Source of the DNA: Escherichia coli
GTDB lineage: Bacteria > Pseudomonadota > Gammaproteobacteria > Enterobacterales > Enterobacteriaceae
Reading direction: 5' to 3' (one strand)
Assembly: GCF_003334315.1 (NCBI RefSeq)
Contig: NZ_QOWR01000015.1
Length of the DNA: 64,000 nt
Shown here: piece after piece, positions 27,194 to 55,985 of the stretch
Numbering within the stretch: position 1 is the first letter of the stretch
Layout of the letters: every line of letters starts with the position of its first letter
The notes under the pieces: generated by a model
The model's input: only the letters and a program-made list of their open reading frames with translations
The model's database searches: none
What the model was told of the DNA's origin: nothing
Translations under genes and position numbers: made by a program

Positions 27194-28174
27194 ATGGCTT
27201 TTACACCTTTTCCTCCCCGTCAGCCTACGGCTTCTGCCCGTTTACCGCTGACGCTGATGACGCTTGATGACTGGGCGCTTGCCACCATTACTGGCGCGGA
27301 CAGCGAAAAATATATGCAGGGTCAGGTGACAGCAGATGTCAGCCAGATGGCAGAAGATCAGCACCTGCTCGCCGCCCATTGCGACGCCAAAGGTAAAATG
27401 TGGAGCAATTTACGTCTGTTCCGCGACGGCGATGGCTTTGCATGGATTGAACGGCGCAGCGTGCGTGAACCGCAGCTGACTGAACTGAAAAAATATGCGG
27501 TATTCTCTAAAGTGACCATCGCGCCAGACGACGAGCGTGTGCTGCTTGGTGTTGCCGGTTTTCAGGCGCGCGCCGCGCTGGCAAATCTCTTTAGCGAACT
27601 GCCTTCGAAAGAAAAACAGGTAGTCAAAGAAGGCGCGACCACTTTGCTATGGTTTGAACACCCGGCAGAACGTTTCCTGATCGTAACCGATGAAGCTACT
27701 GCTAATATGCTGACCGATAAACTGCGCGGTGAAGCGGAACTGAACAATAGCCAACAGTGGCTGGCATTAAACATTGAAGCGGGTTTCCCGGTGATTGATG
27801 CCGCCAACAGCGGGCAGTTTATCCCACAGGCGACCAATCTCCAGGCGCTGGGCGGTATCAGCTTTAAGAAAGGCTGTTATACCGGACAAGAGATGGTGGC
27901 GCGAGCAAAATTCCGTGGTGCCAATAAACGTGCGCTCTGGTTGCTGGCAGGTAGCGCCAGCCGACTGCCGGAAGCTGGTGAAGACTTAGAGCTGAAAATG
28001 GGCGAGAACTGGCGTCGTACCGGTACGGTGCTGGCTGCGGTAAAACTGGAAGATGGTCAGGTCGTGGTACAGGTCGTCATGAATAACGATATGGAACCGG
28101 ATAGCATCTTCCGCGTACGCGACGATGCGAATACATTGCATATCGAGCCGCTGCCGTATTCGCTCGAAGAGTAA
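27194..28174 (+). CDS. ygfZ: Folate-binding tRNA-modification protein YgfZ
   Basis: 326-aa ORF, GcvT-like fold family. Confidence 0.9.
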
Positions 28175-28179
28175 ATCTC

Positions 28180-28365
28180 TTTATCGCATCAGGCATTTAT
28201 CGCCTGATGCGACGCTGGCGCGTCTTATCATGTCTGGGATTTGATGCCTTTATCACAACAGGGACGAGGCCCGTAGATCGGATAAGGCGTTCACGCCGAA
28301 TCCGGCAGTTGTGCTCCGATGCCTGATGCGACGCTGGCGCGTCTTATCAGGCCTACAAAGGCATA
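28180..28365. repeat. REP/BIME cluster (three REP units)
   Basis: Two copies of GCCTGATGCGACGCTGGCGCGTCTTATCA (28202-28229 and 28321-28348) flank an inverted REP (CGGATAAGGCGTTCACGCCGAATCCGGC). Confidence 0.7.
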
Positions 28366-28369
28366 CCCA

Positions 28370-29032
<663 letters not shown>

Positions 29033-55879: not shown

Positions 55880-55985
55880 GTCATGCCGGATGCGGCGTGA
55901 ACGCCTTATCCGGCCTACAAAAACCTGCAAATTCAATATATTGCAGGATACGTGTAGGCCTGATAAGCGTAGCGCATCAGGCAAT
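55880..55985. repeat. REP pair (BIME) downstream of fbaA
   Basis: GCCGGATGCGGCGTGAACGCCTTATCCGGCCTAC and inverted GTAGGCCTGATAAGCGTAGCGCATCAGGC. Confidence 0.7.

Follow-up and report, generated by a model that had tools for sequence, protein, structure and literature searches.

The 195-bp extragenic spacer between the stop codons of the convergent genes ygfZ and trhA (formerly yqfA) in Escherichia coli is a BIME-2-type REP cluster of the textbook kind. The explanation that best accounts for the observations overall, to which we assign a probability of roughly 0.8, is a BIME-2-type array that supplies hairpins at mRNA 3′ ends and changes in size through slippage or recombination. The array is real, non-random, and ordinary, and acts as the literature describes: REP/BIME arrays, their copy-number variation, and their targeting by IS621 and IS1397 are already known (PMC3333891; PMC1525189; PMC11208160).

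Anatomy of the REP array and its place among known REP elements

The stretch of DNA analyzed (the window) is 64 kb long, and the limits of the spacer were taken from its list of open reading frames (ORFs). The names ygfZ and trhA/yqfA are those of the RefSeq annotation of genomes that are 99.8-100% identical to the window, and REP orientation is given by the GTAG-first convention of Ton-Hoang et al. (PMC3333891). From 5′ to 3′, the spacer contains a 13-nt inverted z2 fragment, a degenerate z2 REP, a linker, a y REP in the opposite orientation, an S linker, and an intact z2 REP. The features are as follows.

27194-28174, plus strand: ygfZ, encoding a tRNA-modifying/folate-binding protein; ORF of 326 aa, stop codon TAA at 28172-28174
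28184-28196, plus strand: partial inverted z2 REP head TCGCATCAGGCAT; 13 nt, present in short and long alleles
28202-28238, minus strand: z2 REP number 1, degenerate; first 29 nt the same as in REP number 3, tail TGTCTGGG
28202-28320, unstranded: 119-bp unit (z2, tail-to-tail linker, y, and S linker), the copy number of which differs between strains
28231-28272, unstranded: tail-to-tail linker from z2 number 1 to the y REP; 42 nt, single-copy in E. coli genomes
28273-28306, plus strand: y-type REP with GTAG at 28273-28276, in opposite orientation to the z2 copies
28307-28320, unstranded: head-to-head S-type linker from the y REP to z2 number 3; 14 nt, inside the naRNA4 match
28321-28357, minus strand: z2 REP number 3, intact; GTAGGCCTGATAAGACGCGCCAGCGTCGCATCAGGC on the minus strand, 0 substitutions relative to the z2 consensus
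28335-28338, unstranded: loop TGGC of z2 number 3, homologous to the IS1397 insertion position
28346-28356, plus strand: IS621 target ATCAGGCCTAC, empty; exact match in the tail of z2 number 3, with the CT core at 28353-28354
28370-29029, minus strand: trhA, ORF of 219 aa, the convergent partner of ygfZ

The y and z2 strings used for REP matching are taken to be the consensus of each type. Matches to these strings, a repeat search, and a match to the Rfam model RF02564 bear out the first-pass annotation, which had placed a REP/BIME array between ygfZ and yqfA with its middle REP oppositely oriented; this middle REP is of the y type and lies on the plus strand.

The repeat search found a direct repeat of 34 nt with 94% identity (28202-28235 versus 28321-28354), 119 nt from start to start, the first 29 nt of which are identical between the two z2 copies. 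In an exact-pattern search, the 29-mer GCCTGATGCGACGCTGGCGCGTCTTATCA was found at 28202-28230 and 28321-28349 and nowhere else in the 64 kb, and it had no match in 100 dinucleotide-preserving shuffles. Given these spans, the earlier description of identical 29-bp REP units flanking the array holds for the identity itself, whereas the end coordinates then assigned (28229 and 28348) are one base short. Tandem Repeats Finder, which reports the 119-bp period in a strain with five REPs, is silent on the window because only about 1.3 copies are present.

Beyond the shared 29 nt, the z2 copies diverge. The three substitutions by which z2 number 1 departs from the z2 consensus are confined to the GTAG/outer-stem end, and this copy ends in ...TTATCATGTCTGGG where the intact form has ...TTATCAGGCCTAC. 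TCTGG stands at the GTAG/CTAC position; with this tail, the copy therefore lacks CTAC/GTAG, has a broken outer stem, and contains no IS621 target. In z2 number 3, GTAG is read as CTAC at 28353-28356 on the plus strand; the GTAG end lies 12 nt, and the paired stem 17 nt, past the trhA stop codon. The y REP has three mismatches to the consensus GCCGGATGCGGCGTGAACGCCTTATCCGGCCTAC in a pattern search and is somewhat decayed in the window strain (GTAGATCGG... and ...GCCGAATCCGGC), whereas other long alleles retain GCATCCGGC.

A perfect copy of the y consensus is located elsewhere in the window (55885-55918, plus strand), where it forms a pair with a z1 REP (about 55948-55982). This pair (55885-55982) is the one other REP locus within the 64 kb and looks like a BIME-1-type element. 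An Rfam ES036/CssrF match (55919-55961, 47.3 bits) is located between its y and z1 REPs, and a second exact IS621 target is found at 55954-55964 on the minus strand. Within the spacer itself, a 15-nt motif (CTTTATCGCATCAGG, 28179-28193) recurs as CTTTATCACAACAGG (28248-28262) with 13 of 15 positions identical. The first of these overlaps the partial inverted z2 head, and the second, situated within the tail-to-tail linker, could be a decayed REP head or a chance match.

The array has the properties expected of REPs. Imperfect palindromes of 30-40 nt with a bulged hairpin are present, strong in z2 number 3 and weak in y, and GTAG is found 5′ of the hairpin foot in y and z2 number 3, though not in z2 number 1. 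The sequences match the family, are extragenic, and have a high genomic copy number, pieces of the spacer region recurring at a median of 11 places per E. coli genome (megablast). BIME-2 elements are tandem z2/y copies, the number of which at one locus differs between strains (PMC3333891). Like these, the ygfZ-trhA array alternates z2 and y orientations, has a short head-to-head S linker (14 nt between y and z2 number 3), is extragenic and located between convergent genes, and is tandemly repeatable, with one, three, or five REPs in different strains in steps of 119 bp. It departs from them in that the first z2 lacks the GTAG end and that an extra 13-nt inverted z2 fragment yields a non-canonical hairpin beside the ygfZ stop codon. 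REPs are bound by gyrase, Pol I, and IHF and are targeted by REP-specific insertion sequences (Tobes & Pareja, PMC1525189).

The closest named relative is REP325/naRNA4, the yjdM-yjdN BIME-2 array, which shares the y-S-z2 unit and the placement of a hairpin array in a 3′ UTR. The Rfam covariance model for naRNA4 (RF02564) matches 28276-28353 on the plus strand with 75 bits against a gathering threshold of 59.5, and matches more weakly (26 bits) over the vestigial pair at 28161-28234. This score could suggest that the y-S-z2 pair gives rise to a nucleoid-associated non-coding RNA resembling naRNA4, which would condense the chromosome in concert with HU; in line with this, transcription has been reported for most REPs (Qian et al., 2015; PMC4550694). 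We regard that reading as extremely improbable. Because the model consists of one y-S-z2 unit of REP325, a match to it means similarity to a REP pair rather than a function, and about 62% of E. coli genomes lack the matched segment. REP325/naRNA4 itself has been found to cause no measurable nucleoid compaction, with REP-REP contacts unseen, in a study whose authors include one of those of the original work (bioRxiv 10.64898/2026.03.23.713779). REP325 comprises six tandem units inside an operon of co-directional genes, whereas the ygfZ-trhA array lies between convergent genes and is made up of a single full unit together with remnants. We take the match to confirm a BIME-2-type REP pair rather than to indicate an RNA gene.

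In the RefSeq records of K-12 MG1655 (NC_000913.3, 3040500-3045500) and W3110, there is no repeat_region or REP feature in the ygfZ-trhA spacer; the array is left unlabelled by automated annotation pipelines. Two small ORFs over the array (28291-28449, minus strand; 28319-28522, plus strand) were dismissed, as they overlap trhA and consist mostly of REP sequence. The Rfam scan at gathering thresholds also identified 6S RNA (ssrS; 41863-42046, 139.8 bits) and a Sib antitoxin RNA (42695-42845, 133.8 bits), both of which are expected neighbors in this part of the E. coli chromosome.

Hairpins beside two convergent stop codons

In a fold of the sequence next to ygfZ, the 28184-28196 fragment pairs with 28202-28212 in a perfect 11-bp stem with a 7-nt loop, beginning 9 nt after the ygfZ stop codon. 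This stop-proximal hairpin has a predicted energy of -24.5 kcal/mol on the plus strand and -25.4 kcal/mol on the minus strand (z = -3.5 and -5.2, respectively). Because the end of z2 number 1 is degenerate, the 13-nt fragment upstream is a better partner for the 5′ arm of this REP than the REP's own 3′ arm; taken by itself, z2 number 1 forms the inner 5-bp stem only. The degeneracy of the first z2 and the hairpin that the inverted fragment forms near the ygfZ stop codon are details beyond those in the first-pass annotation. On the trhA side, z2 number 3 folds with -21.4 kcal/mol on the plus strand and -21.9 kcal/mol on the minus strand (z = -4.5 and -5.1). The bulged hairpin expected of a REP is also predicted for y, but it is weak (-14.5 kcal/mol, z = -1.3), no more stable than shuffled sequence. 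The fold of the entire spacer reaches -82.1 kcal/mol on the plus strand and -84.0 kcal/mol on the minus strand (z = -5.0 and -5.5 against shuffles).

A consensus scan for a hairpin followed by a T-run found none in the spacer, its three matches all lying inside trhA. As the spacer hairpins have no T-run, they are not classical intrinsic terminators, and that reading was rejected.

Pairing is largely kept among 14 distinct alleles. In the stop-proximal hairpin, 98% of cells are paired, with one compensatory change from A-U to U-A, and in the canonical REP hairpin 93% of cells are paired, with a G-C pair of the inner stem replaced by A-U in five rows. Two base pairs are altered on both sides across the 14 alleles. 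These patterns give modest support for conservation of the structure, with few independent events.

The most likely role of the array, judged by analogy with other REPs, is to provide bidirectional 3′-end hairpins for two convergent mRNAs. The ygfZ transcript would enter the array from one side and the trhA transcript from the other, and both genes are expressed, as indicated by differential-expression rows in published supplements. Transcribed from either side, the hairpins would block 3′-to-5′ exonucleases and partly attenuate read-through, effects for which other REPs provide experimental precedent. REPs located within about 15 nt of stop codons reportedly affect translation termination. 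REP325 acts as a partial, partly Rho-dependent terminator and as an mRNA stabilizer, not as a nucleoid organizer (Harris et al., bioRxiv 10.64898/2026.03.23.713779), and in convergent gene pairs with a REP both genes are more highly expressed (bioRxiv 10.64898/2026.03.23.713779).

It is also conceivable, though in our judgment unlikely, that the array is neutral selfish or relic DNA without effect on its neighbors, tolerated between convergent genes and subject to random decay or expansion. Alleles with one, three, or five REPs, IS-disrupted alleles, and scarred alleles are all found in apparently healthy lineages; two of the REPs, number 1 and y, are degenerate; and the presence of different REPs in the same spacer of Pseudocitrobacter suggests repeated colonization of a permissive site. 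Neutrality is harder to reconcile with the presence of a hairpin near each stop codon in every sampled allele, except those that are IS-disrupted or scarred, in which the trhA-proximal hairpin is broken. Changes in the stems are, in addition, partly compensatory, and other REPs have been shown experimentally to affect mRNA stability and termination. A role as 3′-end hairpins is accordingly the reading that we prefer.

Gain and loss of the 119-bp unit

Variation was followed in 5,426 complete E. coli genomes. A 651-bp query over the locus matched all 5,426 (megablast) and was contiguous in 5,301; many of its matches are split in two, with a span of 532 bp rather than 651 bp. Of the 5,426 genomes, 2,037 (37.5%) contain the inner 95 bp of the unit (28228-28322), a lower bound because megablast may miss divergent copies. 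This segment is confined to a single locus in each genome (median, 1 place), and eight genomes contain it twice. One of these eight that was examined, ETEC1716, has a 314-bp spacer with five REPs and 2.2 perfect copies of the 119-bp period; this spacer (429-742 of the extracted locus) represents a perfect tandem duplication of the 119-bp unit. Genomes without the inner segment are exactly 119 bp shorter and have one REP in 14 of 14 sampled cases.

Alignments of 11 and 18 alleles resolve two main forms, in which the spacer has either 195 bp and three REPs or 76 bp and a single z2 REP. Among 60 genomes sampled across the collection, 24 alleles were long, 30 short, and 6 of other kinds; the long/short split rests on these 60 sampled rows, the query coverage totals for the short allele being unusable as the pieces are joined in long alleles. 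The number of REPs per allele (one, three, or five) thus corresponds to zero, one, or two extra 119-bp units, and since about 60% of E. coli genomes have one REP, the extra two units are dispensable. The comparison of the spacer across strains clearly excludes an identical spacer in all relatives, and the variability between strains that had been proposed for the array is confirmed, in multiples of 119 bp and, in 118 genomes, by insertion sequences.

The YD786 short allele equals the window minus a precise 119 bp, plus one SNP in 532 bp, and the crossover could fall anywhere in the 29-nt identity. The directly repeated z2 copies, identical over 29 nt and 119 nt apart, would allow unit number to change through slippage during replication or through unequal recombination. 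Both the precise deletion in YD786 and the perfect duplication in the five-REP strain fit slippage or unequal exchange between the z2 copies, and from sequence comparison this is probably how unit number changes.

The same exactness of the 119-bp steps would be compatible with the activity of RAYT (TnpA-REP), the REP-associated tyrosine transposase. The binding and cleavage rules of RAYT involve a bulged REP bearing GTAG and CC/T sites on an inverted REP (PMC3333891; here and below, a slash marks a cut site or junction). An arrangement of this kind, a GTAG-bearing bulged REP beside an inverted REP with CC/T sites, is present in the sequence of y and z2 number 3, which makes the array a candidate for RAYT involvement: GTAG is found on the 5′ side of the y REP on the plus strand (28273-28276) and of z2 number 3 on the minus strand, the two REPs form bulged hairpins, and a type I site TGCC/TGAT (28320-28327) and a type II site GGCC/TACA (28350-28357) are found. 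RAYT would bind the GTAG REP on single-stranded DNA and cut the CT sites of neighboring inverted REPs, and rejoining would add or remove 119-nt units. The type I cut position falls within the 29-nt identity that bounds the 119-bp unit, and cuts made at the corresponding CC/TGAT in each z2 copy would be separated by exactly one unit.

We nevertheless consider this mechanism quite improbable, and give an equally slim chance to the specific proposal that the exact 119-bp gains and losses were made in vivo by RAYT cutting at CC/TGAT sites one unit apart. In z2 number 1, the equivalent site is CGCC/TGAT rather than TGCC/TGAT, this copy is without GTAG, and the y REP is decayed in the window strain. 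The inner 95 bp is found at no other locus in the 5,426 genomes, so there is no sign of unit transposition, and 29 nt of homology at a spacing of 119 nt suffices for slippage. Furthermore, the RAYT activity was demonstrated in vitro only (PMC3333891). Slippage or recombination between the direct z2 copies therefore remains the favored mechanism.

As for direction, the three-REP form is found in the divergent strain E69 (95.2% identical over 3.8 kb), in which the z2 copies differ at 4 of 29 positions. In E. albertii NBRC 107761, contig NZ_BBMY01000128.1 starts inside the S linker, which is found in the long form only, and this contig end probably reflects a break in the assembly at the repeated y REP. 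A scan of 100,044 species genomes for outgroups, using a degenerate pattern of the trhA C-terminus, returned three loci, one of which is cut inside the array; the polarity of the indel, which rests on E69 and the truncated E. albertii contig, is in consequence weakly supported. On this thin comparison, the form with three REPs is probably an old one from which at least some of the single-REP alleles derive by precise deletion. Three or more independent deletions are unsupported: only YD786 closely matches a sampled long allele, and in a virtual-deletion comparison the other sampled short alleles have at least 14 flank differences from every sampled long allele. The z2 copies of two further long alleles, VG12A2 and 12867, differ by one loop base, which indicates that the perfect identity of the copies in the window is a lineage-specific state, a single substitution away, produced by mutation or conversion.

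Outside Escherichia, the same spacer of Pseudocitrobacter faecalis DSM 27453 contains two y-like REPs arranged tail to tail, with dissimilar linkers. The ygfZ-trhA spacer is REP-permissive across genera, with differing content.

Insertion sequences at the array and implications of its variation

IS621, which encodes a bridge-RNA recombinase of the IS110 family, has as its natural target an 11-nt sequence, ATCAGGCCTAC (or ATCGGGCCTAC), with a CT core (Durrant et al., 2024; PMC11208160). Neither IS621 nor IS1397 is present in the 64-kb window. In the population, a right junction of IS621 with the trhA end was found in 111 of 5,426 genomes and a left junction with the long allele in 33 records. 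As at known IS621 REP sites, insertion is at precisely the CT of the target, and in all 111 genomes the element adjoins the trhA end. In 12867 (long allele) and 55989 (short allele), IS621 follows ...ATCAGGCCT and ends in ...ACAGTATCT/ACAAAGG. Unlike these occupied sites, the target in the window is empty, and the first z2 copy offers none.

An array variant that carries ...TTATCAGTATCTACAAAGG was found in 19 genomes, mostly labelled O104:H4, in which (for example, in 17-07187) ...GTCTTATCAGTATCTACAAAGG replaces ...GTCTTATCAGGCCTACAAAGG. This variant is identical to the IS621-occupied 55989 allele after a deletion between two CAG triplets (ATCAG/GCCT... and ...AACAG/TATCT), and by this comparison it is probably the scar of an imprecise loss of IS621. 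The variant destroys the outer stem of the REP and the IS621 target.

IS1397, a member of the IS3 family with specificity for REPs (PMC1525189), has inserted in the loop of z2 in O78 strain 3, with duplication of TGGC (GACGCTGGC/IS1397/TGGCGCGTC). In this strain, the element occupies 1831-3342 of the extracted locus, which has a single z2 REP. This resembles the known insertion of IS1397 in the palindromic units of BIMEs, here at the ygfZ-trhA locus, in the z2 hairpin loop, and with a 4-bp duplication. Of the 5,426 genomes, 7 have the IS1397 junction; the alleles in which it was observed all have a single REP and belong to strains other than that of the window. Together, IS621 and IS1397 account for 118 of the 125 genomes without a contiguous match to the locus. 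The earlier suggestion that the array is a recombination hotspot consequently holds in a restricted sense, for local gain and loss of units and for IS insertion; large rearrangement breakpoints were not seen at the locus.

For annotation, the Rfam "naRNA4" match at ygfZ-trhA should be taken by annotators as "REP pair", not as a gene. For the biology of REPs, the locus represents a clean population-scale case of gain and loss of a BIME-2 unit, with three or more REPs in about 38% of genomes and one in the sampled remainder, and it is a natural and often used landing site of the IS621 bridge recombinase with a probable scar of its loss. Were RAYT in fact to have made the changes in unit number, a locus with thousands of sequenced alleles would serve as a natural read-out of RAYT activity. 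If REP number tunes the expression of ygfZ or trhA, the alleles would constitute a ready-made natural experiment.
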